Source: an uncultured Methanosarcinales archaeon
GTDB lineage: Archaea; Nanobdellota; Nanobdellia; Woesearchaeales; CAZYIM01
Direction of reading: 5' to 3'
DNA length: 64,000 nt
NCBI GenBank assembly: GCA_964647565.1
Contig: CAZYIM010000009.1
Coordinates: 11,266 to 75,265 of the forward strand
Under the pieces are notes generated by a model that worked only from the letters and a program-made list of their open reading frames with translations, had not been told where the DNA came from and did no database searches. How positions within the stretch are numbered: the first letter of the stretch is position 1; every line of letters starts with the position of its first letter. Of this stretch, positions 11,691-64,000 are shown piece after piece. The position numbers were made by a program, and so were the translations under genes.

Positions 11691-11700
11691 TTATAGAAAA

Positions 11701-13982: not shown

Positions 13983-13983
13983 G

Positions 13984-15378: not shown

Positions 15379-15379
15379 G

Positions 15380-17876: not shown

Positions 17877-17877
17877 A

Positions 17878-37102: not shown

Positions 37103-37792
37103 ATGCATTATAAAAAACACAATCTTTTCAAGGATATCGGCTCAAAAGATAAGAATCTTCGGAAAAAAACAGTCACGATCGTAGGAATAAGCAGCGTCGG
37201 TTCTGTGATAGCAGACATGCTTGCAAGAGCAGGCGTCAACCTAAGATTGGTAGACAGGGGAAGAATTGAAACAGAAGACATGCTAAGCTCCACACTCTAT
37301 GAGATGGAGGACCTAAACAAGTTCAAGGTTAAGCAAGCCAAGAAACGGCTAGAAGTCGTCACCAAGGATGTGAAGATCAAGACATTTCATGAGGACCTGG
37401 TCCCGAGGAACATCTTCCTACTTGATTCAGACATTGTGATTGATTGTACCAACAATATAGAAACATCATTGATGATAAACGAACACTGCTATAAGAAGAA
37501 GATCCCTCTAATATTCTGTAAATACGCAGGTTCAAAGGGAATTATCTTCATTGTTGACAAAGATGCCTGTGTTGCATGTGTCGAAGATAAGATCAAAATC
37601 GGCAAAATAGAAAAAGAGGGTATCATCTCTCCAACTGTACATGTAACAGCCTCGTTTGCTGTTGCCAAGGCGTTAAAGTTGCTTCTAGGTCATAAGCATG
37701 AGAAAAACATGATCAGCTTTGACATTTGGAAGAACACAGCCAATAAGGTGAGCGTAAGAAAGAATCCTAAATGCTCTGTGCATAAGAAATAA
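37103..37792 (+). CDS. ThiF/MoeB-family protein with degenerate catalytic motifs
   Basis: VTIVGISSVGS..ADMLARAGV..LVDR, VIDCTNN, CVAC; lacks the NLxRQ motif. Confidence 0.8.
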   Translation: MHYKKHNLFKDIGSKDKNLRKKTVTIVGISSVGSVIADMLARAGVNLRLVDRGRIETEDMLSSTLYEMEDLNKFKVKQAKKRLEVVTKDVKIKTFHEDLVPRNIFLLDSDIVIDCTNNIETSLMINEHCYKKKIPLIFCKYAGSKGIIFIVDKDACVACVEDKIKIGKIEKEGIISPTVHVTASFAVAKALKLLLGHKHEKNMISFDIWKNTANKVSVRKNPKCSVHKK

Positions 37793-37823
37793 ATTTTATA
37801 AACAGTTCTTTACTCTTTAAACT

Positions 37824-38684
37824 ATGACTAGTTCAGATAAGAGATTTATGCACAATTTTGAAAAAAAGATAGTTAAGACTATAAAGAAATACAAATTATT
37901 CTCCAAACAAAATAAGGTCGGTGTCGCGGTCTCTGGCGGAAAAGATTCTACTGTCTGTCTTCATGTGCTAAACAAACTAGGCTATAAAGTGGTAGGCCTG
38001 ACTGTGGATGCAGTCATCGGCAACTACACCAAGAAAAACCTAGAGAGACTCAGGACTTTTTGCAAACAGAACAAGATTCCTCTAAAAGAGCTCTGCTTCA
38101 GAGAGGAATTCGGGGGTTCGCTCTGCTATCTAAGGGATATACTCAAGGAAAAAGGATTCAAATACAAATCATGCATGCTCTGTGGCATTCTTCGAAGATA
38201 CTTATTGAACAAATACGCTAAACACTACAAGTTTAATGTGCTGACAACAGGCCACAACATAGATGACGAAGCACAATCCATACTGATGAACATTGCCAGA
38301 AATGATCAAGCAAGATTGATGAGATTAGGTCCAATAACAGGCATTGTCAAAAGCAAGGGCTTTGTCCAAAGGGTCAAGCCATTATACTTCTGCACTGAAG
38401 AAGAAATTACGCGGTACTCCAAGCTGATGGGCTTTGATGTCATCTACACAAGATGCCCCTGCTCTGTAAATGCTTTTAGGAGAAAGTTTCGAAATGAACT
38501 GGATCAAATCGAGAAAAAAACTCCTGGAGTAAAGGAAAACATTGTCAAATACTATATGCAAAATATCTACCCTTTGAAGAAAAAACAAAAAAAAGGGGAA
38601 ATAGCCTTCTGCAGCACCTGCGAAGAACCTGCCAGCCAAAAGATCTGCAAGAAATGCGAGATCATACTAGCTTTGAGAAAATAA
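37824..38684 (+). CDS. ncsA: tRNA 2-thiolation protein (NcsA/TtuA/Ctu1 family)
   Basis: SGGKDS PP-loop, CMLCGILRR, TGHNIDDE, RVKPL, CP, C-terminal CxxC...CxxC. Confidence 0.88.
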   Translation: MTSSDKRFMHNFEKKIVKTIKKYKLFSKQNKVGVAVSGGKDSTVCLHVLNKLGYKVVGLTVDAVIGNYTKKNLERLRTFCKQNKIPLKELCFREEFGGSLCYLRDILKEKGFKYKSCMLCGILRRYLLNKYAKHYKFNVLTTGHNIDDEAQSILMNIARNDQARLMRLGPITGIVKSKGFVQRVKPLYFCTEEEITRYSKLMGFDVIYTRCPCSVNAFRRKFRNELDQIEKKTPGVKENIVKYYMQNIYPLKKKQKKGEIAFCSTCEEPASQKICKKCEIILALRK

Positions 38685-49532: not shown

Positions 49533-50981
49533 CTAGTGGCCTCCTTGTCTGGCTCTCCTATCTGCTTCTTCTCTTCGCCTTTTCTCTCTTTCCTTTTCAT
49601 CCTTGACAGACAATATATTTTTCTCTATTACCTTTCTTTTCTCAAGTTCATCAAGCACTTCAGTCTTTATCTTAGCGTTCCTGATCTGGTCTGGTTTGTC
49701 TCTCAACAATCCAAGCCGTCTGTAAAGCTTGGCCATTTGAGGTAAGCTTTCATCATAGAGTCTTGCCAGTTCATTTCTCATCTCAACAGGAGAAAAATTA
49801 TTTGGCTTGAAAACAACCTCTGTAAAATCATAGTGGTTATAGTTCCAATCAAAGATCCTCTTTGCCTTTTTCATCTTATCAAATTCCTTTGTTCCTGGCA
49901 AAGGGGTGAAAGGCAAGAATTGAGCGTCTTTCATACCTGATTCATTGACAACCCTTATCGTATTGTCAAATGTTTGCCTATTGTCTCCATCCAGACCGAC
50001 AACAAAAGTACCCAAAACATCAATATTATATTTTTCCTGGATCTTTCTTACCCCTTTGACAAAGTAATCTATCAGGCTTTGGCCTTGTTTGAGATTATAT
50101 TTCTCTCCTGCAAGGGTCTTTAAGCTTTTAGGGGACAATGAATCAAATCCTATAAGCACGCCTTGTGCTCCACTATCTCGCATAGCACTCAAAACGCTGT
50201 CATATCTGTGCACTGCAAAAGATGTTGATCCAAACCAAGGGTGATCCATTGGAATCATGCCCTTGAAAAGTTGCTTGGCTCGCTTCCTTCCAGGTTCTGA
50301 AAAAGTAATCAGATTAGGATCTGTAAAATAAACTCGGTCTCCTTTAGGTATGTTAGACATATCCTCAAGCGTTTTTTTAACGGATGCAGCTTCATAACCT
50401 TGGCCATAGACGAATCTTGCACTGCAAAACGCACATATCCTGTCACAGCTTACAGATGTCTGTACAGGCCAGTTGATGTTCTTGCCGTATCCCACAACCT
50501 CAAATCCTGAAAAATCAGGCGCCTTAAGATCGTTCATAGGAGTTCGCTCTCCCTGATAGAAATTCTTTAGCTTGCCCTTTTCAAAGTCTTTTAACATCTG
50601 TGGAAATATCTTCTCTCCTGGACCTACACCAACAGCGTCCACTCTTTTTGCAAAGAATCCTGGGTCAACCCCTGCAACATAACCACCAACCATGATGGCA
50701 GTCTCAGTGCCCATTACACCGTCTGCTTCCTCAATCTCTTCGATTAGGTCCATTGTCCTTTCTATATTGCAGACATTGCCTCCGCTTAGAGCAACAACAT
50801 CTACATTCCCCACATGATCGTAGGCATTGAATGGCTTGACTGTCTCGTCAACTATCTTCTTGTTCCAGTTATCCGGGGTATAAGCCGCCAGATACGCAAG
50901 GCTCAGTGCAGGCATCCTGGTATTCATATATAGTGTTCCTGGATTTACAACATTCACCATTGCAACAGTTTTTTCTGTCAT
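49533..50981 (-). CDS. B12-binding radical SAM enzyme
   Basis: PALSLAYLAAYTP, IMVGG (cobalamin-binding domain); CDRICAFC; FVVGLDGD, TPLPGT. Confidence 0.9.
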   Translation of the reverse strand: MTEKTVAMVNVVNPGTLYMNTRMPALSLAYLAAYTPDNWNKKIVDETVKPFNAYDHVGNVDVVALSGGNVCNIERTMDLIEEIEEADGVMGTETAIMVGGYVAGVDPGFFAKRVDAVGVGPGEKIFPQMLKDFEKGKLKNFYQGERTPMNDLKAPDFSGFEVVGYGKNINWPVQTSVSCDRICAFCSARFVYGQGYEAASVKKTLEDMSNIPKGDRVYFTDPNLITFSEPGRKRAKQLFKGMIPMDHPWFGSTSFAVHRYDSVLSAMRDSGAQGVLIGFDSLSPKSLKTLAGEKYNLKQGQSLIDYFVKGVRKIQEKYNIDVLGTFVVGLDGDNRQTFDNTIRVVNESGMKDAQFLPFTPLPGTKEFDKMKKAKRIFDWNYNHYDFTEVVFKPNNFSPVEMRNELARLYDESLPQMAKLYRRLGLLRDKPDQIRNAKIKTEVLDELEKRKVIEKNILSVKDEKEREKRRREEADRRARQGGH

Positions 50982-51007
50982 ATTGATCTCCTCCTAGTTT
51001 TAGTTAA

Positions 51008-54000
51008 TTATCTTTTCAGATGGTTTTTTGAAATATATCTGAACATCATATCATCTGTCTTGGTCTTGAGCATCTCTCCAATCTTCTGATCGCCAACACC
51101 TACAGCTCTCATTCGATCTACGAAAGCAACATATGGCTCTGCAAGCTCTGCCTTATGCTCATTGAAATAGGCCTGTTTGGCCTGTGTAATGTTAAATGTA
51201 AGGCTGGCTCCTACCATGCTTTGATACTGTTTTTTTAGCCGCGGATTTAATTCATCTTGTTTTTCGTCTTTATCTTTGGCCAACTCAAGGTCTCCCAATG
51301 TGCATTCGATTGTACCACATGGGAATGTTACCCGGACCTCTTCGTCAGGATCATCAGGATCATAGACCTCATCAATAGTCCCGACCTTCCTGCTCGGACA
51401 GTAATATTCACTGCTCTTCTTTACTCTAACCTGAGAATCGTCAGTTATATGTTCTGAGTTATCATCAGCAGGATCACTAATCAGCATTACTGGCATCAAT
51501 TCACTTGCTTTTATTTTATAATAACTTTCAGGAAAATCTCCAAAAGGCACGAAATCCAGCTCACTATCCATCCGTCCAGCTGTGCCAATGGGCAGCTCTT
51601 CAACACTGGTTCCTCCGGCATATTCATTGCCGTTTTCAGAAGTGTGGGTGACTGCAATATCATCCCTATTTAACCGACCTCCTTCTTTTTGTCCTGTTAT
51701 CGAAAGCATATAGAACTTGATATCCTGAGAAGCTGCACCTTGCCTGGCTTCCTTCTCAAACTGTTCAAAATCCTCCCTGTCAAACGCAGTTCTGGAATAG
51801 GTAAAAACAATACCTGTTGATCTCTGTAATGTCTTCTGCACCAGATTGTATATACTTGTATAATCATATTGGGATTTTACATGATCCAACTTATCCAGTG
51901 CAGATGTTGAGGGCAATAAACCTGAAAACTTCTTAAGATGTTCATTTGAAAGATTAGCCTGATAGAATGCCTTGATATAAGGCCGTTCAATGCCAAGCTC
52001 ACTCATGTTTTCAACACCCATCCTTATCAGGACTTTCTCTTCCTCGACTGGATCAATTTCTTTATGCCTATATTCATCAGCGATCTTGGATAAAGATCTC
52101 CGAAGTCTCTTCTTCTTAAGTCTATGACTATTTTCCCTAAAATGATACCTGCCTAATTTAAACAAAAAGCCTCCGAATTCAAAAATATTGACTGCAGTAT
52201 CCTTAACAGTATGAGGTGTCCAGTCAAACAATGCAAACTGGGTCCTGTTTGAAACCTCCTTTGTAGCTTCTGTAGTCCATTCAACTGCATCATCCAGTCT
52301 AAGTGCCCTGTATGGTTTGGTCATCTGCCAGCGTATATCTGACCATGAGACATTGCGTAGAAGATCTGATATTCCATCCTTGGCTCTATCAAGCTTCAAC
52401 TTATGCCCAAGATCCGACATACTATCCTTGGCCCTGTCCAATTTCAGCTGTCTACCAAGATTTGACAGCCTGTTCTTGGCCTTGTCCAGCTTCAGGTACT
52501 GCTTGATTGATTCTGGCATCTTAATCTTAATACATGGTTCCTTAACAATTCTAACCTGGTCTTTACGTATATCCCAGGTTACAATTGGATGATCAGGATC
52601 TTTGGATAGATGATGAAACTCAATATAATAAGCTTCATCTGTCTCTCTCTTAACATAACCCCAACTACCTTCTTTAGAATAGTTATAGCCGGCTCCATTA
52701 ATGACTTCAGCCTTAGGCCTGCCCTCGGCATCACGAACTACTCGATCTTCTAATAAAGAATATTTTCCTAGCGTCTTAACCAAGTTCTCACTCATCTTCG
52801 GGATAAACGGACTTAGAACTTTACGCTTCTCAATAATATCAACATCATCTTTTCGGACCTCTTTAACCCTGGGTGTCTTATGGCCATATTTAGAGAGATG
52901 GAACTCAATCTCATACCTGTCCGCAGATTCACCAATAACATAACCCCAGTCACCTTCGTGTATAGTCATGTATCTCGAATCATCAGTAAGTATTGCTTTT
53001 GGCCTGCCTTTTGCCACTGGATCGATGCCAATCTTTGCTAAAAGACCGCTTAATCTAAACGACTTATGAATTTTATTTCTCTTGTTGTGTCTCAGTTCAT
53101 CTCTCTTATTCTCTCTCTTCTGTCTTCGCTTGTCCTTTCTCTCATCTTTCCGATCCACAAAATCATCAAGATATCTATAATCACGATCCCGTTCAAAGTT
53201 AGGCCTCCAGTGATCAGGAGATTTAAACTTCGTAGCTTTCCTAAGCTCGCTTGGCTTTAAGCAGTAATAATCATTATGCTTATCCCTAAAATCCAGGTCT
53301 CCATCTATCCTGCCAAGGGTTCCAATAGGAATCTTCTCAACAAGAGTCCCATCAGAATACTCGTCTCCTTTCAGGGCCTTATGTGTTATAACTTCGTCAT
53401 CTCTTTTTAGCTTAGGTCTCCCTTTCTTAATTTTATATAAGTTAAGATCGTAGATATTCTGTATCCTATCCAAGAATCTTTTATAATCGGATTTATTAGT
53501 CAAATCAGGCAGCTGGATCTTAAAGCCTGTCTTCTTAAGGATCTTCTGCTCAATCTCCTCACAAAAGACAGAATATGAATAGGTCTTGTGTTTTAACTTG
53601 TCCAACTGGTATACCATGAACCCTAAAAACTGATCCTTTGATCCTATCAAGCCCTCGTACTTACTGACAGCTTCGTTTGCAGACAAGCCACCAAATATAC
53701 CCTCTTTTGCAGCCACATTCACAAGTGCCTGCTTTATCAACATATCAAGATCAGAAGTTGGCTTATTGGCTTGTCTCAACACAGTTTTCTGATGTTGAGC
53801 ATCTAATTCCTTGCTACAAATGCTCAATAGACTTAGTCTTGTCAGATCTGAATAATCTTCAATATACTCCAATCTCTTGCCAAAAGGTTTTACCAGATCA
53901 TGGATCAGGTTTGCAACAACAATCTCTTCAACAGGAAAACCAGTAAAAAATACATCCTGATATGGTTCTGTTCTCTTTTCAGGGATGGGCAACTCTTCTG

Positions 54001-54739
54001 ACATTGGTTTTTGCCTAGGTTCGCTCTCTTCAACAGGCGTTTCCTGTCCAGCCTTGCCAAAGATATTTTGAGTCCATGCTCTTAGCCTGCTAACTTCTAC
54101 AGGCGTCTCTTTCATCCTGATGAAATCCAGGATTGGCGTCATCGGCGCAGCCAGCTCATTGCTCAGCTGATCATTAATATATTGTTGAGCAGAAAAATCT
54201 GCATTCGGCTTGCTTTTAAGATTTGAATACTTAGCAGCTGTTGAAGCCAGGATAATGCTCGTAAGCTCTTCAATCTGCTCAGCATATCTGCCAGCTCTTT
54301 GGGAGACAGCTCTTGGCGTCTTTCCAACGACAAGATTAGCCAACACCATATTGAGCAAAGGACTATAATCATTAGTATAGTCATAGTCTTTTTCTGTTCT
54401 GGAAAGGATTGATGCTATCTTCTTGACAGGATTAAATCCAATCTCAGGAACATTGATCTCCTCTTCTCCTCCAAACAGGTTCTGTTCTATCTTCTCATTC
54501 ACAGAATCCTCTATCATAGAATCAAAATCATCATCGTCATCAGAAGGAACAGGATGCTCTTCAAACAGATCAAGTTCTTTTATTTTTTTAAGTTGTTTCT
54601 TTTTTTCAGGAGTCAGATTCAAAAGTTTTTCATTTGTAAGATCGTTATAGGCAGTATCATAATTAGTTTTCTCTTTACGCTCATATCTATTATTACCATA
54701 CATGTCATTAACATAGTCATCCAGTGTATCCCGAGTCAT
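51008..54739 (-). CDS. Large (1243 aa) hypothetical protein with duplicated SH3-like modules
   Basis: Long ORF with visible internal repeats; ATGA overlap with the E1 gene. Confidence 0.75.
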   Translation of the reverse strand: MTRDTLDDYVNDMYGNNRYERKEKTNYDTAYNDLTNEKLLNLTPEKKKQLKKIKELDLFEEHPVPSDDDDDFDSMIEDSVNEKIEQNLFGGEEEINVPEIGFNPVKKIASILSRTEKDYDYTNDYSPLLNMVLANLVVGKTPRAVSQRAGRYAEQIEELTSIILASTAAKYSNLKSKPNADFSAQQYINDQLSNELAAPMTPILDFIRMKETPVEVSRLRAWTQNIFGKAGQETPVEESEPRQKPMSEELPIPEKRTEPYQDVFFTGFPVEEIVVANLIHDLVKPFGKRLEYIEDYSDLTRLSLLSICSKELDAQHQKTVLRQANKPTSDLDMLIKQALVNVAAKEGIFGGLSANEAVSKYEGLIGSKDQFLGFMVYQLDKLKHKTYSYSVFCEEIEQKILKKTGFKIQLPDLTNKSDYKRFLDRIQNIYDLNLYKIKKGRPKLKRDDEVITHKALKGDEYSDGTLVEKIPIGTLGRIDGDLDFRDKHNDYYCLKPSELRKATKFKSPDHWRPNFERDRDYRYLDDFVDRKDERKDKRRQKRENKRDELRHNKRNKIHKSFRLSGLLAKIGIDPVAKGRPKAILTDDSRYMTIHEGDWGYVIGESADRYEIEFHLSKYGHKTPRVKEVRKDDVDIIEKRKVLSPFIPKMSENLVKTLGKYSLLEDRVVRDAEGRPKAEVINGAGYNYSKEGSWGYVKRETDEAYYIEFHHLSKDPDHPIVTWDIRKDQVRIVKEPCIKIKMPESIKQYLKLDKAKNRLSNLGRQLKLDRAKDSMSDLGHKLKLDRAKDGISDLLRNVSWSDIRWQMTKPYRALRLDDAVEWTTEATKEVSNRTQFALFDWTPHTVKDTAVNIFEFGGFLFKLGRYHFRENSHRLKKKRLRRSLSKIADEYRHKEIDPVEEEKVLIRMGVENMSELGIERPYIKAFYQANLSNEHLKKFSGLLPSTSALDKLDHVKSQYDYTSIYNLVQKTLQRSTGIVFTYSRTAFDREDFEQFEKEARQGAASQDIKFYMLSITGQKEGGRLNRDDIAVTHTSENGNEYAGGTSVEELPIGTAGRMDSELDFVPFGDFPESYYKIKASELMPVMLISDPADDNSEHITDDSQVRVKKSSEYYCPSRKVGTIDEVYDPDDPDEEVRVTFPCGTIECTLGDLELAKDKDEKQDELNPRLKKQYQSMVGASLTFNITQAKQAYFNEHKAELAEPYVAFVDRMRAVGVGDQKIGEMLKTKTDDMMFRYISKNHLKR

Positions 54740-56220
54740 TGTTGCTGCCTCAACAGATGTGGATTCTTCTTGACAAACTTATCCACCATCTTTTGTGTGA
54801 TTTTAAGATTAGGAACTGGTTTTGAATAGCAATCGCAGGGATCGTTAAGAGGATCTGTTCCAAACCTGGTCGGACCTTCTGCCCTATAGGTGACCTCTCC
54901 ATTGAATGGCTCTCCAAATTTCTCAGGCTCAAACAAGCTAAAAGACGCCAGCATGGCCATTGCACCTGAAATCGCATTGGGCATAACAACAGATGGGTCT
55001 GGATTGTCAACGCAGCTTGCTCTTCTTATCATCTCAGCCTGCTTACCCTGCTCAAAGATATCATAGATGCAGTTCATGCACTGGGTCTTGCCAGGCGACT
55101 GGGTTATCACTCTTGCACTATAGGGCATGGCACCTGCACTTATCAGGTGTGCACCATTTTCAAGGGCCCATGCAGTATTGACTGCTCGAGTATAAGGATT
55201 GTCAACAAGATCAAATCCAAGCTGGTACTTTTTCTTTGTTGTAAAACCAGGCTCTATCATCTGATCTATTCCCTTTGACTTGGTCCTGCCTCTAGACATG
55301 GCCTTGATCTTCTTTGCTCCATGAACACATTTCTTTTCCCCAATACCATCTATTCCAAGGATCTGCCTGTGCGGATTGGTCGTATCAAAAATATCATAAT
55401 CCACAAGGTCAAGACATTTGAAATTCATGTAGGATCCAGGAATACCTGCCCAATTACCAATTGCGCCAAATCCTAGAATGACTGCCTGTATCTTGGCATA
55501 TATATCCCAATCAGGAGTAGGTATATCCTTAAAGCTCTTAGGAAATCCAAATCTATAACCCTCACCGAGCCTGTACCTGACTGGCTTGCCAAGATATTTT
55601 CCTTCTTCTTTAAAAATGACCTTTCTCATCTCTTCTGTCGTGACACCGCACATCAATAAAGCCATAAGCTCATCTTGTGACTTGCCTTCAAACATAGGCA
55701 TCAGACCCGCAGGATCTTTCTCACCATTGGTCTGCATCAGCTTGGTATATCCAAAAACAGAGGAAGTGCTTAGAACAGGGACATCCATATCGTGTCCTTT
55801 TGCCATTGCACGCCTTTTTGAGTTCAATGAGTTAGTAGCATCAACAATAACACTGGCATCACCAAGCAGATCGTCGTCTGCAGAGGACTCCAGCTGCGTG
55901 ACATAGCTTTCAATCTTTACCTGGGGATTCAAGGCCCCCAATAACGCAGCATAGCTTTCTGCCCTGGGACCCACGGGTACTTCCTGACCAAGAAACATCT
56001 CTCCTTTTTCAACATCTGAACCGTCAATCAGAACAAGATGCCCAATACCTAATGGAATTGCACAGGCCGCAGTCCATAAGCCTTGCTTATCTAGACCAAC
56101 AATCGCAGCTCTGGATTGAGTCAGCATTTCCTGACCTTCATCTCCCCAGATCCTCTTCTGCCTATTATATCTCTCTTTCTCAATCATTACTGCTTTTTCT
56201 GTCTTTTTTCGTTTTGGCAT
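54736..56220 (-). CDS. E1-like enzyme with two ThiF/MoeB domains (inactive plus active)
   Basis: Domain 1 RYNRQKRIWG...IVGLDKQG; domain 2 LGFGAIG, VDYD..DTTNPHRQ, DLVDN, CMNC, ASC. Confidence 0.88.
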   Translation of the reverse strand: MPKRKKTEKAVMIEKERYNRQKRIWGDEGQEMLTQSRAAIVGLDKQGLWTAACAIPLGIGHLVLIDGSDVEKGEMFLGQEVPVGPRAESYAALLGALNPQVKIESYVTQLESSADDDLLGDASVIVDATNSLNSKRRAMAKGHDMDVPVLSTSSVFGYTKLMQTNGEKDPAGLMPMFEGKSQDELMALLMCGVTTEEMRKVIFKEEGKYLGKPVRYRLGEGYRFGFPKSFKDIPTPDWDIYAKIQAVILGFGAIGNWAGIPGSYMNFKCLDLVDYDIFDTTNPHRQILGIDGIGEKKCVHGAKKIKAMSRGRTKSKGIDQMIEPGFTTKKKYQLGFDLVDNPYTRAVNTAWALENGAHLISAGAMPYSARVITQSPGKTQCMNCIYDIFEQGKQAEMIRRASCVDNPDPSVVMPNAISGAMAMLASFSLFEPEKFGEPFNGEVTYRAEGPTRFGTDPLNDPCDCYSKPVPNLKITQKMVDKFVKKNPHLLRQQQ

Positions 56221-56228
56221 TTTCTTGG

Positions 56229-58037
56229 TTATTTTTTAGGGGGTGTTTTTCTTACAGACTTTTGTTTTGCCGGTGCAGCGTCTTTGTAGATTTGATTCAC
56301 ATAATTCTCTAAAAGCTCGTTTCTTCCTTCAAGATGTGCAAAAGAAAAATCTTCCATGAATTGCAAAGTGGTTTCATCCTCATTCAGTACCATATCCAAT
56401 GCAAGACTGATCGTTGCATTCCTTGCTGCATAAAAATTCGTATCATATTGCTCAACTGCAAGAGGATTATCCTCTACCAGAGGCCCTGCCGCAAGCACTG
56501 CATCCTTTAGCCCATAGGTTTGTGGTGCTGTATTCGCAACGAAACCAATTTGGTTTGTTATCCCAGGTCTATATTCACTCAGATCGTCTATCAGAAAATC
56601 AATATAGGTCGAGTATTTGCATTCTGTTCTCTGCGAAAGCGCCCTGTATTGGAATGCTGCCATCACAAACATCGTAGCAATCTCAAGTGGCTCATTATAA
56701 TCTCTGTTCTCTTTCCACTCCAAACCATTTGGCAATTCAGGTTTTACTGGTTTTCCAGGTCCTACTGCAACAGATTCTCCAGTGTCAAGAGCTTCAAGCA
56801 GAAGTTCTGTATCATCAGGTATGTTTATAGTCTCTTCCACAATGTTTTCAGTTTCAGGAATGTCTAATTTTGACAGTTCTTCTTCCACCATAAATTCTAT
56901 TCTGTCTTTTACTGAAGGAGTTATTTTGTTTACGCCAAAACCCCCCCAGGGTAAGGGCGCGTACTTGGCTGCTGTTGAAACAACAGTTGTTCCTTTAGCA
57001 GGATAAGTAGTAACATAACGAGTATGACCCCATTTAGGAAATATTGTCCTCTCCTTGACAATTTTCTTGACTTCATCAGCAGTCGGAAGGTTTTTATCTT
57101 CATCAAACATCTCAAAACCAACATTTGCATAAGGTTTATATGCCTCTTTTTGAGAGAGTACAAACTTTTCCTGCACACCTAGAGCAACATAAGGATCATC
57201 TTTTCCAGAGTTGTTGAACACAAAGCTCCATGCAAAGTTGACCAGTCTTGGCTCTTCTGTAGTATGATCAATGATGTCAAGCAATTGCGCCATGAACTCA
57301 TTTTTCTTGAAATCCTTTCTCTTGGGATTTAGACCATAGTGCTTTAGAACTGTGTAGAACGCTTCATCATCAGGATAGACAAATTTAACTATTGCATCTG
57401 AAAGTGCATCGCCCTTAAGAATCAGCTTGTCCGCATCGTATTCTTTTGCAAGAGTGGATTGAATAAGATCAAATCTTGAACCATGAACACGTCTTGTGGT
57501 CTTAGCAAACTTGTTGGTAAGATTAACAAGCACATCATCATCATCCTTGCTGTGATGCAGACCTCCTCTTTTAGATGGATGTATATGGAAAAGCGCTGCA
57601 GATCTTTTGTTTGTACCGTCTCGTTTATTCCACTTATATACCTCTCTAGCAGCAGTATCATAGTTATTGTCAATCCTGATTGAACCTATTGTAACCTCTA
57701 ATTTTCTTGGAACAATAAAATCATATAACCTAAATAAGTCATCGCCTAAATCAGTCAGGAATAATCCTCCAGTCTCCAATGCCTTTTTACCTTGTTTTTG
57801 GGTCACAGGTCCAATCATCTTTCCAAATTCCAGACATCTATGAGATATCAATGGCTTTTTAGGCACCAATTCCCTAGCAGATAGGATTTTGGTTTTCTTC
57901 GCCTCAGGTTCATCATCCAAAGCCTCTAGGAGCTCATCAGCAAAAGTGCCGTCTAGATCATAGCCGCCAAGAGCAGCTCCGTTGATATCGCACATCCCAT
58001 CTGGACAGTCATCAGCTTGTTTCTTTTTTCGTGTCAT
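56229..58037 (-). CDS. JAMM/JAB (MPN+) metalloprotease domain protein with a long C-terminal extension
   Basis: ISHRCLE..., LETGGLFL, FHIHP-x8-SKDD; AGGTGA RBS before ATG 58037. Confidence 0.72.
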   Translation of the reverse strand: MTRKKKQADDCPDGMCDINGAALGGYDLDGTFADELLEALDDEPEAKKTKILSARELVPKKPLISHRCLEFGKMIGPVTQKQGKKALETGGLFLTDLGDDLFRLYDFIVPRKLEVTIGSIRIDNNYDTAAREVYKWNKRDGTNKRSAALFHIHPSKRGGLHHSKDDDDVLVNLTNKFAKTTRRVHGSRFDLIQSTLAKEYDADKLILKGDALSDAIVKFVYPDDEAFYTVLKHYGLNPKRKDFKKNEFMAQLLDIIDHTTEEPRLVNFAWSFVFNNSGKDDPYVALGVQEKFVLSQKEAYKPYANVGFEMFDEDKNLPTADEVKKIVKERTIFPKWGHTRYVTTYPAKGTTVVSTAAKYAPLPWGGFGVNKITPSVKDRIEFMVEEELSKLDIPETENIVEETINIPDDTELLLEALDTGESVAVGPGKPVKPELPNGLEWKENRDYNEPLEIATMFVMAAFQYRALSQRTECKYSTYIDFLIDDLSEYRPGITNQIGFVANTAPQTYGLKDAVLAAGPLVEDNPLAVEQYDTNFYAARNATISLALDMVLNEDETTLQFMEDFSFAHLEGRNELLENYVNQIYKDAAPAKQKSVRKTPPKK

Positions 58038-58050
58038 TTTGATTATCACC

Positions 58051-59475
58051 TTATTCAATTTGTGTTGCAATTACCTCTACTATTTGATAGCCTTTTTTCC
58101 TGGCTTGCGATCTTGTCATAGAACCTTGTCTTAGAATATCATTCAGATGTGTACCAAAGTAGGAATGTCCTGAATGGCTATCCAGACTTTCCTTGTTCAA
58201 TGGCTGCATATAGACATTAGCAGCGTCACTCAACTTCCTGACCATTTCAAGCAAGGTATTGTTGTAGGAACCCTCGTTTCGGTTCAGGTTGCATAACGTG
58301 CTATATCCACTAGTCCTGTCTCGTAAACAAGGGTGATATGGACTAGGCTCGATTATATATGGATAATCTGTGGTATAAGCTTTGCCACTCCCCCATCCGA
58401 TCTTAATTGCAACTCTTATTGCTTCAAAAGGCCAGAATTTTTTTGGATCTCTACCGTCCTGTGTTGCAAACTTAGGAAGAGTTGTATATACTAGGTATTC
58501 GCTGCCACTCCGTCTTAAAAAACCACAACCACCAATATCATACTCATCCAATTTAGCCAAATCTACCATGTAACCCTTGGTCATGTCCCGCTTTTGCATA
58601 ACCTCATTTATTGCCTGGAAAGCCTGCTTGCTCTTTTCAAGAGCTCTCACTTTCCACTGCTGTTTTTTTCTATTAACAAGATACTCGCTCAATCTAGATA
58701 TGCTCATAGACGCATTTTCAGACGGCACATAATTACGATTGTTAATTCGAAATCCGAGGCCCAAATGGGGTTTGCCCCCGACCTTTTTTAGTTCAAAGAC
58801 ATTCTGTCCAAGAACATAAAAAGGCTGGAAATCAATTAAATTCCCAAAGTCCGAGACTCTTAGATTCTTTCTTTTCAAACCTAACTCAGACAGAGCAATC
58901 CTTCCGCGGATTGCACTAGAGGTATCTATCTTTTCAGTCTCTTCCTGAATCAGTTTCTTTCTCATAAATTCTCCAAAGTCATCATCACTTTTTTCAAATT
59001 CCTTTGGATCCCCAAAACTTGCAATCAACTTGTCTGCTATCTCCTTTCTTGCCTGTTCCAAAGGATCAAACACTTCATTTTCATCCTTGTCATCAAGCAA
59101 ATCCAGGAGAATGAGATCATTATCATATTTCTTGCTGACAAGAAAGGGCATGAAATCATTCATGATATAACTCAGAGTATTTATCCTGTTTGATTCGTCG
59201 GCCACGCGATCCTCTGAATCAAGCCTCTGATGGATTTTTTCCTGCAGATATCTATCACTGTATTTATGGATAGCTTCTTCCTGCCTTACCTCATCCCGGC
59301 TCTCAAACTCAGCAAAACTTAAAGATGGCGCCAGTGAGAACTCCAGGCTGCCATTAAAGAACATCTTATCAGGATAGCCATTAGACTCTATAGGGGAGTA
59401 TACTCTATCTCCAAAAAGTACAAAAGAGGATTGCTTTTCAGCAATCCTGTCTAAAAAAGTTAAAAATTTGCTCAT
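58051..59475 (-). CDS. Protein with a C-terminal E2/UBC-like domain (putative)
   Basis: Beta-meander, then YPYIIEPSPYHPCL...TLCNL, a helix and PLN; operon context. Confidence 0.5.
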   Translation of the reverse strand: MSKFLTFLDRIAEKQSSFVLFGDRVYSPIESNGYPDKMFFNGSLEFSLAPSLSFAEFESRDEVRQEEAIHKYSDRYLQEKIHQRLDSEDRVADESNRINTLSYIMNDFMPFLVSKKYDNDLILLDLLDDKDENEVFDPLEQARKEIADKLIASFGDPKEFEKSDDDFGEFMRKKLIQEETEKIDTSSAIRGRIALSELGLKRKNLRVSDFGNLIDFQPFYVLGQNVFELKKVGGKPHLGLGFRINNRNYVPSENASMSISRLSEYLVNRKKQQWKVRALEKSKQAFQAINEVMQKRDMTKGYMVDLAKLDEYDIGGCGFLRRSGSEYLVYTTLPKFATQDGRDPKKFWPFEAIRVAIKIGWGSGKAYTTDYPYIIEPSPYHPCLRDRTSGYSTLCNLNRNEGSYNNTLLEMVRKLSDAANVYMQPLNKESLDSHSGHSYFGTHLNDILRQGSMTRSQARKKGYQIVEVIATQIE

Positions 59476-59496
59476 TCTCAGTTCTCAACCAAAGTT

Positions 59497-60162
59497 TTAA
59501 AACCTTTTCTCCAAGGGCTGATAATTTTCCCTTTGTTCAGATCCTGGAATGATGATAGCAGTTACAACCAGCTCAACGCCTCCGAAATATTCGACTGGCT
59601 TGTTGTCTCTTAACACCGGTTCACCATCTTTCATGACCTTTTGTTTCTTAAAAAGCCTATTCAGGATAGCATTCTTTTTCACTTTCTGACCGTTTACAGT
59701 AATGGTGTATCCGCCGTGTTTTCCGCCTTGATCTTTGATGAGTCGTGCAACCTCTCCGGTTCCATACATCTCATCCTTGATTCTGCTTACAGGTTCCTCA
59801 AACTTTCTGCCAATTTCTCTTTGAAATTTAGCGTCTTCTCCAGCAACCTTAACTGCAACTTCATCACCAACTGTATAAAGCGCGATCTGGTCTGCTGTTC
59901 CATGTAGGAACACATTCCTAGCCTCATCCTTTATAGAGTAGGTCATCCTGTCTCCCTCAATGCATCCAGGAAAGGCAGTCAAAGCCATCCTGTAGCCACC
60001 AATATCCTCAAGAGTCAATTTCTTGGCTCTCATACCTTTTTCTTCTTTCGTAACCTCTGCATCAGGTCTATCGTTACCACATCTTCGGGTTGCAGTAATT
60101 GTACCTGTAGTTTTAGGTTCTTGTGCTTTGGGCTTTTTTTTCTTTGCTTTTGTATTTGCCAT
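59497..60162 (-). CDS. Putative ubiquitin-like (beta-grasp) protein with a 14-aa C-terminal extension
   Basis: EPVSRIKDEM helix, YTITVNGQKV..NAIL, terminal strand VELVVTAIIIPG; GGAGG RBS; first gene of the operon. Confidence 0.5.
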   Translation of the reverse strand: MANTKAKKKKPKAQEPKTTGTITATRRCGNDRPDAEVTKEEKGMRAKKLTLEDIGGYRMALTAFPGCIEGDRMTYSIKDEARNVFLHGTADQIALYTVGDEVAVKVAGEDAKFQREIGRKFEEPVSRIKDEMYGTGEVARLIKDQGGKHGGYTITVNGQKVKKNAILNRLFKKQKVMKDGEPVLRDNKPVEYFGGVELVVTAIIIPGSEQRENYQPLEKRF

Positions 60163-60232
60163 TTTTTTCCTCCAAACGTAATATTCGATTCGAATTCACG
60201 TCAATTTTTTATCCATTTTTTTATATTTATAT

Positions 60233-62230
60233 CTAAAATGTCATTAACTCTCTATCAACATTAGCTGTTTTTAAGCCATCGAAATGTTGGCCATATTGTC
60301 TTGTTCTCAAGTACCAGGGATTCTGAGTTTTACCACTATGATATATATTCAACGCATCTATGAATCGAGAATCTCCCACTTGCTGTCTGTATTTTACTGC
60401 AAAATCAATGATCACATCCGGCAAATTAGTTGAAGCTCGACAACCAAACCCTTTTTTCGGCAGCTCAAGATTAAGGCAGCCACCTGAAGGGCATGCCTGC
60501 ATCAAGATCTCATCTGACAACTGCAATATCTCAGGAGTATATTTGAATGTCTCCTGAAAATCATAATATTTCTTGCTCTCAGCATAGAAATCATACAGAC
60601 CTGATGAAAACAAAAGCTTATCTCTTTGCATCTTGATCTCTGTTGAGATATTATGTACAATTTCATTCATCTCAGTAATGCCTTGGTTCCTGGCCTTTGC
60701 AATCCTGTTGAAAAAAGCATCCTGCAGATATTTGCCAACTCTATATGAACTACTGAAATTAGACTTTAGTCTCTCAACATTAAGGATAAACGGATTATCG
60801 TTGTTATTAATAGCTATCAGGGTTTTCTTATGTTCCTCATCATCAGCAAGATATATTACTGTAGCAGGCCCAATCTGCTCATAAATATCCGCCTGGGGTA
60901 TTTCCTGGCTGGTAAAGATGATAAAAGGCGTGCCTGTCTCATCCAGAGGAGGCAGCTCAGTATGTTTTGTAATCTTTTTTCTAATACCCATTTCAAATAG
61001 GCTTGTAAGCTCACCAGGATATCTGGATAGCAGCATGATTTGTCCGTGGTCAACTTTTTTTGGCAGATCATAGTTGCCTTTCTTGATAATAGCATCAACC
61101 AAGTCTTTTCGGCCGATTTTCTCAAATGCATTCTGAAGGTCATAAAATAATTCATTCCCATTTGTTAGTGTTGTCTCAATCTTCTCGAGATCTTTTTCTA
61201 TCAGCTGATCAAAGCCTACAAGATCGTGCTCTGCTCTCTTTCCAGTTATGAATCGTAGATGTTTTTGCATCAGGCCACTGGATTCAAACTGACTTTTGTC
61301 AGACAGATCAACAATTAGTTCTTTTGCTGCCAGTTGCTTTTCCAGAGCTGTTTTCTTTTTAGCAGATTCAGCAATATATAATATTGTAGAATGAGGATAT
61401 ATCCTTTGGATATCCTTATGCGCTGTCAAATCCCCAACAAATACTATACCTGGATTTTCACCTGAGTTATAGGGTCTTGCATCAAACTTTGATGTGTATT
61501 CCTTATTGATTCCCAGGCTCAAGTCTTCTATCTTTTTCTTAGCACCCGCCTTTGCAATTACAACAGCATGGATCATTGATGGTTCTTTTATTAGATATTC
61601 AAATCCATTCAGGCTATCCTTTAACCTATGATATTCATCAGATAAAACTGCCCCTGGTTTGAATACTCCTAACTGCAGATATGCCTTTAAGAGATCCATT
61701 GCTTTTAGAACATCATTGGTCGGAAATCCCTGTGGAAACTGGTCCGGGGATGTAAAATTAGCTTTAGGATCAATAGAGACTATCAAAGACTCAAGATCTG
61801 CGATCTGATCATTCAGCATATCTGTTGCCCTGACTTCGTCTATATATTGCTGTCTCAATTCTGGACTGAGCAGGGCAGCGCCTGTAAATAACTCATCCAA
61901 CATAACTTGTTCATCAGGATGAGCTTGAGCCCTCTCTTTCACTACATCTAATACCTGATTAAATGTTTGTTCACCAAGATATGCATATGAAAAAGGAGCA
62001 ACACCCACTATATGATTAGGATCTGTAAAAGAATGCTTAATATCATTCAGAAAATCTTTTGCCTTGTTAAATCCCCGTGTAGCATCAGAACCATTTTCAG
62101 GATTGACAGTATCAAGACCAAAAGAAAATAGCAGAGTAAAACCAAATTTGTCCAGGCTTTTAGCATACAACTCGTTGCTATCTATGCCTTCTAGCTCCAT
62201 AAGTTTGGCGAGGTATTCTTCTTGCTTCAT
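60233..62230 (-). CDS. Hypothetical protein (665 aa) with an internally duplicated alpha/beta module
   Basis: Long ORF; T[IV][LI]Y[IL]A...KK..L...KS.F.SS....K.L occurs twice; C-terminal CPSGGC...C. Confidence 0.7.
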   Translation of the reverse strand: MKQEEYLAKLMELEGIDSNELYAKSLDKFGFTLLFSFGLDTVNPENGSDATRGFNKAKDFLNDIKHSFTDPNHIVGVAPFSYAYLGEQTFNQVLDVVKERAQAHPDEQVMLDELFTGAALLSPELRQQYIDEVRATDMLNDQIADLESLIVSIDPKANFTSPDQFPQGFPTNDVLKAMDLLKAYLQLGVFKPGAVLSDEYHRLKDSLNGFEYLIKEPSMIHAVVIAKAGAKKKIEDLSLGINKEYTSKFDARPYNSGENPGIVFVGDLTAHKDIQRIYPHSTILYIAESAKKKTALEKQLAAKELIVDLSDKSQFESSGLMQKHLRFITGKRAEHDLVGFDQLIEKDLEKIETTLTNGNELFYDLQNAFEKIGRKDLVDAIIKKGNYDLPKKVDHGQIMLLSRYPGELTSLFEMGIRKKITKHTELPPLDETGTPFIIFTSQEIPQADIYEQIGPATVIYLADDEEHKKTLIAINNNDNPFILNVERLKSNFSSSYRVGKYLQDAFFNRIAKARNQGITEMNEIVHNISTEIKMQRDKLLFSSGLYDFYAESKKYYDFQETFKYTPEILQLSDEILMQACPSGGCLNLELPKKGFGCRASTNLPDVIIDFAVKYRQQVGDSRFIDALNIYHSGKTQNPWYLRTRQYGQHFDGLKTANVDRELMTF

Positions 62231-62248
62231 TTGCGGTTACTTCCTGAG

Positions 62249-63778
62249 TTATTTTGTTTTGGCAATCTCTTTAACAGCAGAGACTGCTCTTTCTGCATCG
62301 TCCTTGTTATTGTAGACATAGAAACTCATACGCAATGTACCCTCATCAATACCCATGTATTCATGGGCCAGGGAAGCACAATGGTCACCGTTTCTCGTCT
62401 CCACATGTCGTTTGTTCAACTCAAATGCAACTGTCTGTGGATCCTGCCCTTTGATATTAAAGGCAATCAATCCAGTTCGCTTTTTAGCATCCAGTGGCCC
62501 ATAAAGCTCAACACCATCAATAGCCGAAAGGCCGTCAATAGCATACTGGATTAGCTCCTCTTCATGCTGCATTATGTTAGTCATAGAAGTCTTGACTCTA
62601 TTCCTCGCCGCGGTTAATCTAGCATCAGGATTTTTTAAGATCTTGATCGTATCAGGATGTTTTTTGAGATATGCAGTCCATTCCTGCTTTTTCTCCTCAG
62701 GAACAATATAACTACCCTGATAGTCTCCTCTGCAGGTGTTCATCAGGATATCTGTCTCGATCTGCCTGCATATTTGTTTTTTAAAAACCGTTGTCTCAGT
62801 TTCATTTGGAGAAACCAGGTTATCTAAACCAAGATTAATCATGAATTCGATGCCATAACCAGTGGCTATGGTTCCAAGCACATTAGGTGTGCCTGCAGTA
62901 TATCTCCAGGGCAGGTCCTTGAATACAACCTCTCCTTCCCTGACAACATCAATCATGTCGCCGCCCACTAAAAAGGGATCTAGGTTTGAGAGCACTTTAT
63001 ATTTAGAATAAAGACCGCCCACTCCTAACGGAAGGCCTGCCTTGTGGAAGGACCATGCTAAGAAGTCACAGTCAATATCCTGTACATCTACTGGGCTTGC
63101 GGGTATCAATTGTGCTGCATCAACTAGTAAATATGATCCATTAAATCCTGTGTGCTGGCCGTATCCGCTTGAATGTGCAATCTCGCCAATCCTCTTAAGA
63201 TCAGGTTTAACACCCATGAAATTAGAAGCACCAGTAACAGCAACAAGCTTGGTATGATTATCAACATAGCTCTCAAGTTGGGCCATATCAAGCTCTCCTG
63301 TCTCTTTGTCAAAATCAACCATCCTTATCTCAACATCTTCAACACCAATTTTATCCAATCGCTGCTGGAGCCACCACCACGGAACATAGTTGGAGTTATG
63401 CTCAAGCCTTGTTGTCACAATATTATCATTCTTACGAAACCAGTGCTCAAAGGAATGCACAACAAGATTGATCATCTCAGTTGTGTTCCTGCCAAAGATA
63501 ATTTCTCTATAGGATTCGGCATTGATCAGATTTGCAGCTATATTATAGGCCCGTTCAAATCTTTCAGTAGAAACCTGAGAAGCATCGTATTCTCCTCTGT
63601 GAATATTTGCATAGTCAAAAAGAGATGATAGAAATTTTTCCATGACAGGAAGCGCCATCTGCGTCGATGCGGTGTTATCAACAAAGGTTCTTGGATGTTC
63701 CCGCGGATTGTTTAATCTAAGATCGATCGTCTCCATCAAGTATGGGTACAGCCCCCTAATTGTCTCTGTATTTAACAT
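62249..63778 (-). CDS. sufS: Group II cysteine desulfurase (SufS/CsdA family) with an insertion
   Basis: DNTAST, NIHRG, EHNSN, DAAQ, SFHK (PLP lysine), GTPN, RNGDHCA; GGAGG RBS before ATG 63778. Confidence 0.88.
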   Translation of the reverse strand: MLNTETIRGLYPYLMETIDLRLNNPREHPRTFVDNTASTQMALPVMEKFLSSLFDYANIHRGEYDASQVSTERFERAYNIAANLINAESYREIIFGRNTTEMINLVVHSFEHWFRKNDNIVTTRLEHNSNYVPWWWLQQRLDKIGVEDVEIRMVDFDKETGELDMAQLESYVDNHTKLVAVTGASNFMGVKPDLKRIGEIAHSSGYGQHTGFNGSYLLVDAAQLIPASPVDVQDIDCDFLAWSFHKAGLPLGVGGLYSKYKVLSNLDPFLVGGDMIDVVREGEVVFKDLPWRYTAGTPNVLGTIATGYGIEFMINLGLDNLVSPNETETTVFKKQICRQIETDILMNTCRGDYQGSYIVPEEKKQEWTAYLKKHPDTIKILKNPDARLTAARNRVKTSMTNIMQHEEELIQYAIDGLSAIDGVELYGPLDAKKRTGLIAFNIKGQDPQTVAFELNKRHVETRNGDHCASLAHEYMGIDEGTLRMSFYVYNNKDDAERAVSAVKEIAKTK

Positions 63779-64000
63779 ACAATTGCCTCCATAGGAACCC
63801 TCGGTAATATCTAAGACGAGGGAAAACAACAATCTTTATAAATCTTCCTATCCATCACTACTCCGAAGTTACAGCAAAATAGAAAATCAAAGAAGACTTA
63901 TCCATAGATTCTCAATAAAATGGAAATATTTCGATAAAACCTAGAAGAAATTCATCCGTAATACAACTTACCCTTGGACTTCTGTTCCCTATCCAACTGC

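Follow-up and report, generated by a model that had tools for sequence, protein, structure and literature searches.

Complete cascades that join a ubiquitin-like protein (Ubl), its E1 and E2 enzymes and a protease are, to our knowledge, few outside eukaryotes: the Bil, Bub and Cap2/Cap3 systems, and the operons of Caldiarchaeum and Asgard archaea. In Caldiarchaeum subterraneum and the Asgard archaea, the operons comprise ubiquitin, E1, E2, a RING-type E3 and an Rpn11-like protein. According to two preprints, Bil operons lack an E3 and encode, in this order, a Ubl, an E2, a JAB protease and an IAD-AAD-CYS E1; their tags carry at most nine residues after the glycine (Chambers et al., 10.1101/2023.09.26.559546; Ye et al., 10.1101/2024.11.21.623953). 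The CYS domain of BilD is described there as a helical stretch of about 80 amino acids (aa) inserted in the crossover loop (Chambers et al., 10.1101/2023.09.26.559546), and BilB as having no C-terminal helices (Chambers et al., 10.1101/2023.09.26.559546; Ye et al., 10.1101/2024.11.21.623953). The Bub systems are described as lacking catalytic cysteines, using oxyester chemistry and containing Ubl-E2 and JAB-E1 fusions together with a DUF6527 serine protease, and Cap2, in which E1 and E2 are fused, as conjugating a cyclase and having no separate Ubl (Ye et al., 10.1101/2024.11.21.623953). Here an eight-gene operon is described on a stretch of 64,000 nucleotides (the window, taken from contig CAZYIM010000009.1 of an uncultured archaeon, assembly GCA_964647565.1). 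Its core probably encodes a complete Ubl conjugation cascade of BilABCD architecture, made of protein families that appear distinct from Bil and, as far as seen, confined to DPANN-type archaea.

The genes of the operon, listed from the first to the last, are the following:

62249-63832, minus strand: SufS-like (class V aminotransferase) cysteine desulfurase, 527 aa; first gene of the operon
60233-62230, minus strand: p665, an orphan protein of 665 aa; second gene, with a gap of 18 to the desulfurase gene
59497-60162, minus strand: Ubl precursor (the tag), 221 aa; gap of 70 to the p665 gene
58051-59475, minus strand: enlarged E2-like protein, 474 aa, with a C-terminal UBC domain
56229-58070, minus strand: enlarged JAB/JAMM metalloprotease, 613 aa from a TTG start (602 aa from the ATG at 58037)
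54736-56220, minus strand: tandem E1, 494 aa, with two ThiF stretches
51008-54739, minus strand: giant protein (Giant), 1243 aa, no known domain
49533-50981, minus strand: radical SAM enzyme, 482 aa, probably of the B12-binding type (class B); the operon ends with this gene

The initial annotation of this DNA had proposed an operon of six genes, from the tag to the radical SAM enzyme. The listing of open reading frames (ORFs) matches the coordinates of all six exactly, every one on the minus strand, and the gaps of 21, 13, 8, -4 and 26 nucleotides given for them are reproduced if the JAB gene starts at the ATG at 58037; a start at the TTG at 58070 would instead produce a 20-nucleotide overlap with the upstream E2-like gene. 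The six genes stand, but the extent of the operon does not, since two further co-oriented genes upstream (60233-63832), coding for the 665-aa and 527-aa proteins, have to be included because their synteny is conserved. Only 168 bases separate the desulfurase gene from the end of the window, which is probably also the end of the contig. Among the eight proteins, Pfam recognises three (the E1, the radical SAM enzyme and the desulfurase). The window's Ubl, 474-aa, 613-aa, giant and p665 proteins are blank in Pfam, PADLOC, PHROGs and NCBIfam; PHROGs added nothing relevant for any operon protein, and no model of Pfam, PADLOC or NCBIfam recognises a Ubl or an E2 in the window or in the relatives scanned.

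The 221-aa tag begins with a Lys-rich disordered N-terminus, which is followed in the AlphaFold model by a beta-grasp domain at residues ~52-207 with a large insertion. The mean predicted local distance difference test score (pLDDT) of this model is 78.9 and its predicted template modelling score (pTM) 0.72, with residues 13-45 and 210-216 below 50. In a structural comparison by VIA-align, the list of matches is filled with ubiquitin, Ubl modifiers, UBL domains and carriers of the MoaD/SAMP kind. The best match is the Ubl of TINCR (Z 5.3, root-mean-square deviation (rmsd) 2.5, 74 of 75 residues), and others are human MOCS2A (Z 4.9), SAMP1 of Haloferax (Z 4.6) and BubA (9eav_C, Z 4.2). These alignments cover ~75 residues across model positions 52-207 and end at model residues 201-209. 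A Foldseek search of the tag model against the Protein Data Bank (PDB) gave no match at E<=0.001, its weak rows (E 0.03-0.4) being in many cases ubiquitin or SUMO, and there is no Pfam ubiquitin match. From the model, the tag is read as a beta-grasp protein that contains a large insertion and in which Gly207 (codon 59542-59544) terminates the last strand; the Ubl call made for 59497-60162 from motif pattern and context thus agrees with a predicted beta-grasp fold. The C-terminus consists of a conserved ...VVTAIIIPG207 and a tail of 14 residues. An alignment of eight protein-database homologues and two from related genomes (A5) shows the same conserved strand, GGVELVVSAIIxPG, before tails that differ in both length and sequence. 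Gly207 is kept in 14 of 15 family members, with printed tails of 2 to >20 residues, and within this 15-sequence family the more distant homologues end in GG plus 2-10 residues.

Another component of the core is the metalloprotease. Its JAMM residues are Glu99 (57774-57776) and the motif H162-x-H164...S174-x-x-D177 (57540-57587), and E99, H162, H164, S174 and D177 are all kept in 21 of 21 family members. The JAMM domain lies near the N-terminus and is followed by a C-terminal extension of ~400 aa. The JAB homologues of two related loci (L008 and L009) match Pfam Prok-JAB above the cut-off (3.1e-8 and 1.8e-10), and a profile of four JAB sequences finds in the PDB the Rpn11-like protein of Caldiarchaeum as best match (9.6e-5), followed by CSN5, BRCC36 and RPN11. 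The JAMM motif, which had been judged recognisable, is therefore both intact and invariant, and its profile points to Rpn11-type enzymes.

The 474-aa protein carries a UBC domain in its C-terminal ~190 residues, whereas the N-terminal ~280 residues, also conserved in the family, have no structural match. A model built from an 18-sequence alignment (mean pLDDT 81.0) was compared with 48,161 representative chains in a search independent of Foldseek. In this search the top 16 rows are all UBC-fold proteins, and the first unrelated row has rank 17. The best match is an E2 of Trypanosoma cruzi (Z 6.5, rmsd 4.1, 140 of 156 residues); BubB (9eav_D, Z 5.2) and Cap2 (7to3_A, Z 4.7) are also found. When the 994 best chains of Foldseek were considered, 64 reached Z>=5, and the 50 best rows were eukaryotic E2 enzymes without exception. 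The metallo-beta-lactamases that head the Foldseek rows for this model, over 64 columns, were taken as spurious. The active-site region contains H381-P382-C383 and a candidate catalytic cysteine, Cys395 (codons 58291-58335), in the sequence HPCLRDRTSGYSTLC. Of 24 family members, all have P382 and C395, and 21 have H381. As judged from these residues, the site follows the HP...C layout known from UBC enzymes, with another residue at the position of the Asn and with a lengthened loop. The E2 call for 58051-59475 is thus upheld by a UBC fold, and the enlargement of both the E2 and the JAB relative to known enzymes is likewise confirmed. No Pfam UQ_con or Prok-E2 match was obtained in the window protein (E<=0.1), in three relatives (E<=0.01) or in 20 relatives (E<=0.001).

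In the tandem E1, Pfam ThiF matches two stretches (2.4e-33). The N-terminal ThiF domain is degenerate, with a GLDKQG loop and loss of the NxxRQ arginine, although R17, R20 and Q21 are kept. The C-terminal domain displays G250-F-G-A-I-G255, D274/D276, N282/R285/Q286, K297 and D340. When the columns of 21 and 20 family members were inspected, G250, G252, D274, D276, N282, R285, Q286, K297, D340 and C403 were kept in 21 of 21, and G255 and R20 in 20 of 21. The candidate catalytic Cys403 (55012-55014) lies 18 residues after C384, and C381/C384 together with C462/C464 look like a structural zinc site. On these grounds the C-terminal half is predicted to be active, and the two halves would pair an inactive with an active domain, as canonical eukaryotic E1s and BilD do. 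Judged from the sequence, the position of Cys403 fits a short crossover loop rather than an inserted 80-aa domain; in Uba5 and UbaA the catalytic cysteine is also on a short crossover loop, and the family profile aligns with MoeB over profile positions 232-439 with no large insertion. Against the PDB, this profile matches SAE2 (1.3e-31), MoeB and ThiF (~1e-30), UBA6 and UBA1 (two stretches each), and further UBA3, Uba4, MccB (8e-25), UBA5 and PaaA (8e-20). SAE2, UBA6, UBA1 and UBA3 match as strongly as MoeB/ThiF, while Cap2 (~1e-17) and BubCD (4e-15) match less strongly than the eukaryotic E1s. NCBIfam gives sub-threshold ThiF/MoeB matches, and a tblastn search of the E1 against plasmids returned 38 records, of MoeB/ThiF type only, in which the N-terminal domain was matched and none covered 80% of the query. 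A complex predicted for the E1 and the tag (46-207) scored 0.02 against a mark of 0.32, a result that counts neither way. The E1 call of the initial annotation is borne out by the clear motifs, the two ThiF stretches and the invariant residues. Elsewhere in the window, at 36995-38684, a single-domain ThiF gene (3.9e-43) adjoins a PP-loop ATPase gene (ATP_bind_3, 6.7e-14), which we take to be an ordinary tRNA thiolation pair of UbaA/NcsA type, apart from the operon.

The proposed mechanism is as follows. Because the conserved glycine of the tag is followed by a variable tail and the JAMM site is intact, the JAMM protease would remove the tail of the 221-aa precursor and expose Gly207. The invariant residues of the E1 suggest the next steps: the active C-terminal domain would adenylate Gly207, aided by an arginine of the degenerate N-terminal domain, and the tag would then be loaded onto Cys403, in the short loop behind the CxxC zinc site. 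From there it would pass to Cys395 in the UBC domain of the E2-like protein. The operon has no E3, and targets might be selected by the N-terminal ~280 aa of the E2-like protein or by the giant protein. The JAMM enzyme might in addition undo the conjugation.

The arrangement of these genes is conserved in relatives, as the initial annotation had expected for a true operon. In a first survey of 41 relatives, the E2-like protein was found in five, and three loci had the same gene order. A profile of the E2-like protein then matched 31 of 401 genomes sampled across the phylum, and a broader profile of the UBC domain raised this number to 47 of the 401 at E<=1e-5, spread over 41 of 281 genera. Among 1.84 billion representatives, the UBC-domain profile collects 684 clusters (50% identity) at E<=0.001 and 457 at 1e-10; most of the best 150 of the 684 clusters are 360-620 aa long, with the UBC domain toward the C-terminal end. 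With single sequences of the E2-like protein, no relative was found in genome or viral contigs, and a closer alignment (A10) found six genome-contig loci. For the comparison of neighbourhoods, 24 places were chosen by their E2-like match; 20 further loci were fetched and all ORFs clustered. A JAB-family gene adjoins the E2-like match in 23 of the 24 places, the exception being a 3-kb contig, and the same proportion holds for an E1-family gene, where the exception is a contig ending inside the JAB gene. Nineteen places have the order E2-JAB-E1 and four have E2-E1-JAB; in 16, a small upstream protein belonging to one of two clusters is present. Such an arrangement is far beyond chance. The flanks of the cassette, on the other hand, vary between genomes. 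Every relative of the family that carries an organism name is labelled Woesearchaeota, Nanoarchaeota, Nanoarchaeia or 'archaeon'.

A second, divergent cassette exists in the host genome, on another contig (C34, L065; 5588-10692), and had been missed by the earlier profile searches. It codes for a 229-aa small ORF, an E2-like protein (2.6e-33 with the family hidden Markov model), a JAB (5.6e-20) and a tandem E1 (1.1e-92), and proteins of 636 and 511 aa with no assigned function come after the E1. In two related loci, a eukaryote-type Ser/Thr kinase gene is located two genes after the E1 (L008, 16073-17458; L046, 15269-16924; Pkinase 6e-31 and 5e-27).

Four further proteins accompany the core in the window. 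The desulfurase matches Pfam Aminotran_5 (8.4e-90) and the NCBIfam SufS subfamily (3.8e-100; 335.6 bits, below the cut-off of 475), and PADLOC matches it to SspA/DndA. It contains SFHK at residue 261 and GDHCA at residue 482, which we take to be the context of the lysine that binds pyridoxal phosphate (PLP) and the catalytic cysteine, respectively. The host genome holds three other strong Aminotran_5 genes elsewhere, so the operon desulfurase is an extra copy; it has the same operon position in eight distinct loci. The p665 protein has invariant C580, C585 and C597 near its C-terminus, in CPxGGC...GxC (alignment A6). It has no match in Pfam, PADLOC, PHROGs, NCBIfam, a PDB profile search or the ESM Atlas, and it was found in five of the 401 sampled genomes, each time within the Ubl cassette. 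The radical SAM enzyme matches Pfam Radical_SAM (8.3e-7; 29.8 bits against a cut-off of 29.5) and the B12-binding family (2.4e-6; 27.8 bits, below the cut-off of 32.1), with CxxxCxxC beginning at residue 179. Its NCBIfam matches are to the class B families PhpK (2.9e-13) and HpnJ (6.9e-13), far below their cut-offs. Orthologues of the window type are present in L039 and L041, and in seven other loci the place is occupied, alone or jointly, by a second class-B-like family of 715-810 aa; the window type is thus found in three loci and the second type in seven, with both in one locus. The giant protein is rich in Lys, Asp and Glu and evolves fast. Its homologues, of 822-1239 aa, come after the E1 in related loci and show 16-20% identity, with five invariant columns among eight sequences. 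There is no family match at or above the cut-offs in four libraries, nor a usable match in the PDB profile search or the ESM Atlas. This protein had been annotated as a repeat protein, a description that is not supported at the sensitivity used: BLASTP of the sequence against itself gave no off-diagonal match at E<=1, and short look-alike segments that can be read by eye were not recovered in that way.

The full set of eight genes is present in eight distinct loci from genomes of at least two orders, namely the window, L039 (same contig as L064), L040, L041, L042, L061, L062 and L063; in L062 the E1 was lost by the ORF filter and is intact by tblastn. In more distant cassettes the genes for SufS, p665, the giant protein and the radical SAM enzyme are all missing, and some of these cassettes have AAA+ or Ser/Thr kinase genes instead. 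The giant protein and the radical SAM enzyme, which had been proposed as unusual partners of the cascade, are indeed in the operon, but they belong to one sub-branch and not to the whole family, and the SufS-like protein, p665 and radical SAM enzyme form an accessory module of that sub-branch. In L042 (genome G311, 11484-14968), the SufS-like gene and the p665 gene are each split into two ORFs, with one TAA inside p665, and the core is intact; the accessory module may be decaying there.

The tag itself varies with these accessory genes. In a comparison of ten related loci, not independent of each other (window, L039-L042, L059, L061-L063 and L007), cysteine C28 in an N-terminal C[GD]xxRP motif occurs in eight of eight loci that have SufS and p665, with a two-residue displacement in one of them, and is absent in both loci without p665 (L007 and L059). 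A second cysteine (C67, in PGC) is found wherever there is a radical SAM gene (nine of nine loci), and L007 lacks it. The cysteines of the tag hence give a hint only that they track the sulfur module and the radical SAM genes. The best guess, a weak one, is that the accessory module chemically modifies the tag or a target. A more specific version, in which SufS and p665 load sulfur on the tag (at the N-terminal Cys, or at the C-terminus as a thiocarboxylate) and further changes to the tag or a target are made by the radical SAM enzyme, is unlikely.

The same genes are the starting point of a different explanation, in which the small protein is a sulfur carrier of MoaD/ThiS/CysO/QbsE type: the JAMM protease would trim it, the E1 adenylate it, the SufS-like enzyme convert it via p665 to a thiocarboxylate, and the radical SAM enzyme make a thio-product, with conjugation being absent or secondary. 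Known sulfur-carrier pathways do join a Ubl, an E1, a JAMM protease and a desulfurase, often with a radical SAM enzyme (CysO/Mec+, QbsCDE, ThiFSH, MoaA/MoaD/MoeB). In the window, the operon opens with an extra genomic copy of a desulfurase whose PLP-lysine and cysteine motifs are apparent, p665 combines three invariant cysteines with its cassette-only occurrence, MoaD chains rank near the top in the structural comparison of the tag (Z 4.9 and 4.8), and the E1 profile matches MoeB and ThiF at 1e-30. These pathways, however, need no protein like the invariant-Cys, UBC-fold E2-like protein found in every cassette (24/24), and the core occurs in the absence of SufS, p665 and radical SAM genes in most members (16 of 24 places, some of them cut off by contig ends). 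In addition, Pfam finds no rhodanese domain on the E1, whose tandem pseudo-dimeric build is that of conjugating E1s. The radical SAM enzyme is probably of the B12-binding class, its closest NCBIfam families being mostly methyltransferases and not sulfur inserters. Sulfur-carrier chemistry retains some probability, because MoaD chains score like ubiquitin and a desulfurase is in the operon, and as a full account of the locus we consider it quite improbable.

Another explanation starts from the cysteine motif of the tag and would be a maturation of the kind known for ribosomally synthesized and post-translationally modified peptides (RiPPs). The small protein would be a precursor whose N-terminal Cys motif or C-terminus is tailored by the class-B radical SAM enzyme, with modification by an MccB/PaaA-like E1 and maturation by the JAMM protease. 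The E1 profile does match MccB and PaaA, one of the radical SAM families weakly matches the RiPP enzyme ApyD (3.7e-6), and the C[GD]xxRP cysteine accompanies SufS and p665 in the eight loci mentioned and is missing in the two others. The ApyD match is nevertheless far below the cut-off, and the correlation of the cysteine derives from only ten non-independent loci. Moreover, this precursor would be a folded domain of ~160 aa instead of a short peptide, and the scheme does not account for the UBC-fold protein or the tandem E1, which makes this explanation very improbable.

For the conjugation cascade, two biological roles were considered. A role in conflict or antiviral defence is conceivable, at somewhat short of an even chance; tag-dependent unfolding or proteolysis is also conceivable, well short of it. 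Both the patchy distribution of the family and the second paralogous cassette in the host genome bear on this question. In the housekeeping version, the same conjugation chemistry would serve to tag, unfold and degrade proteins by feeding AAA+ unfoldases and the proteasome, instead of acting in a Bil-like antiviral manner. Beside the tag gene, distant cassettes carry a gene for a ClpX/HslU-like AAA_2 protein (three loci) or for a PAN-like AAA protein with a proteasomal OB domain (two loci), at these positions:

L045, 14921-16384: AAA+ gene
L049, 3523-5037: AAA+ gene
L057, 2473-3627: AAA+ gene
L050, 10156-11649: AAA+ gene
L055, 3135-4607: AAA+ gene

These neighbours are hints of a link between tagging and unfolding in DPANN archaea; both proteasome subunits are encoded in the host genome, and the proximity of the JAB profile to Rpn11-type enzymes points in the same direction. 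Yet a family present in only 47 of 401 sampled genomes, with several paralogous copies in some of them, is not what a housekeeping function would lead one to expect, and the window cassette is devoid of an AAA+ gene. The variable accessory genes and fast-evolving partners are traits that fit accessory or conflict systems better, and the housekeeping version is held here as tentative.

Several points weigh against a complete conjugation cascade. The structural Z values are middling for both the tag (best 5.3) and the E2-like protein (best 6.5), for which Foldseek found no PDB match at E<=0.001. Because of such scores, the fold calls depend on uniform match lists and on motifs. MoaD-type carriers match the tag model as well as ubiquitin does (Z 4.9 and 4.8), so that a conjugated tag and a sulfur carrier are not told apart by fold alone; with a desulfurase also in the operon, sulfur-carrier chemistry keeps for the tag the small probability given above. 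In the E2-like site, the position after HP is Cys or Phe and not the Asn of the canonical HPN, and the spacing from HP to the Cys is shorter in canonical E2s. The window JAB alone has no Pfam match, and the active E1 domain of the window alone has none in the PDB at 1e-5, TcdA (1.1e-3) being the best at E<=1. No Bil chain is among the structure and sequence matches listed (for the E1, the best 60 of 82 PDB matches). In PADLOC 2.0, which perhaps does not include Bil models, Cap2-type 'E1-E2' models are the only matches of the E1 (best 4.5e-8) and the sole defence match of the operon beside SspA/DndA for the desulfurase, and no known defence genes or integrases adjoin the operon in the window. 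The sequencing-run lookup lists eight runs with this DNA, from two studies (marine or seawater metagenomes), with no RNA run among them. With all these points considered, the complete cascade remains the probable reading of the core.

The window is also informative on the host. Archaeal genes found elsewhere in it include those for CDP-archaeol synthase, Nre, NucS, endonuclease dU and TrmB regulators, and the named relatives of the operon proteins are labelled Woesearchaeota, Nanoarchaeota or Nanoarchaeia; the initial proposal of a DPANN-like archaeal host is supported, because the genes of the window are archaeal and the named relatives carry these labels. The host assembly comprises 86 contigs totalling 2.68 Mb, at a completeness of 87%, and the genomes of its order are small (0.6-2.1 Mb). 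The G+C content of the operon (49533-63832) is slightly higher than that of the rest of the window (0.406 vs 0.369). A provirus or integrative element was considered and set aside: the window showed neither an integrase nor a viral hallmark, and the difference in G+C is slight. In other parts of the window, a long co-oriented run of paralogous genes for PQQ-like beta-propeller, NHL-repeat and TPR proteins (465-19203, plus strand) includes five propeller paralogues that form one cluster, and Rfam reports an 85-nucleotide tRNA (27328-27412, minus strand; 56 bits). ARAGORN reports no tRNA in the window, and this one may be intron-bearing or atypical.

The significance of the family is related to the scarcity of such cascades, each of which, when found outside eukaryotes, changed views on the origin of ubiquitination. 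The 684 clusters add a large branch that annotation libraries miss. Its members mix traits typical of eukaryotes (an inactive-plus-active E1, an HP...C E2 with C-terminal helices and an Rpn11-like protease) with a simple crossover-loop cysteine, and because some of them are linked to PAN-like and ClpX-like unfoldases, archaea offer a way to test how 'tag, then unfold' arose. The conserved link to the desulfurase, p665 and a class-B-like radical SAM enzyme is the most interesting part; we know of no Ubl conjugation system with a desulfurase, a Cys-rich orphan and a B12-type radical SAM enzyme as partners. If these proteins do act on the tag, the chemistry would be new. It might join sulfur-carrier chemistry with E2-dependent conjugation, as a present-day intermediate between the two roles of beta-grasp proteins, or alternatively yield a chemically modified Ubl tag of a kind not yet described. 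As for earlier reports, a survey preprint gives ISG15-like systems in only one of 45 archaeal taxa, and a term search in a review of prokaryotic ubiquitin-like systems found no mention of DPANN or Nanoarchaeota. No description of the family was found in a literature search that left out subscription journals and supplements.

When the known systems are compared one by one, the sulfur-carrier systems resemble the window in several components: a beta-grasp protein that is trimmed at its C-terminus, an adenylase of E1 type, a protease of the JAMM family, and a desulfurase that supplies sulfur from cysteine. Those systems (CysO/Mec+/MoeZ, QbsE/QbsD/QbsC and the archaeal SAMP/UbaA) have no E2, a single-domain E1, often with rhodanese, and a carrier of ~70-100 aa, whereas in this family an invariant-Cys UBC protein is always present. 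Type II CBASS Cap2/Cap3 is similar in its E1/E2-type chemistry and its JAB partner, and Cap2 is matched by both PADLOC and structure, but the operon described here contains no cyclase or effector. The Bub (6E/DUF6527) systems use the same tool-kit of Ubl, E2, E1 and JAB, and BubB and BubA are among the structural matches; here, in contrast, the genes are separate, both cysteines are invariant and no cassette gene has a Pfam DUF6527 domain. With the operons of Caldiarchaeum and Asgard archaea, whose PDB entries 6fjv, 6fno and 6fj7 were seen among the matches, the window shares an archaeal host, a UBC-fold E2 with HP...C and an Rpn11-like JAMM protease (the best PDB match of the JAB profile). 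It differs from them in the 221-aa tag with an insertion (vs ubiquitin of ~76 aa), in the fused tandem E1 and in the lack of a RING protein, which had been noted from the start and agrees with Pfam finding no RING domain in any of the eight operon genes. The closest parallel is BilABCD. The order of Ubl, E2, JAB and E1 is the same, the E1 is a tandem of inactive and active halves, the tag has a tail after the glycine, the tags vary in domain make-up and there is no E3. Unlike in Bil, C384 and C403 are only 18 residues apart, so that the ~80-aa CYS domain seems to be missing. The E2 has HPx before its cysteine and C-terminal helices that align with those of eukaryotic E2s, and looks more like canonical eukaryotic E2s than the described BilB. 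The E2 and the JAB are each ~300-400 aa larger, the host is an archaeon, and SufS, p665, the giant protein and the radical SAM enzyme are extra. The initial view of the locus as a distinct variant is thus right as regards the undescribed protein families, but the variant is not without parallel, given that its gene order and tandem E1 match those of bacterial BilABCD. The best reading is that of a Bil-like, eukaryote-flavoured Ubl conjugation system, belonging to an archaeal family that is described in no paper found.

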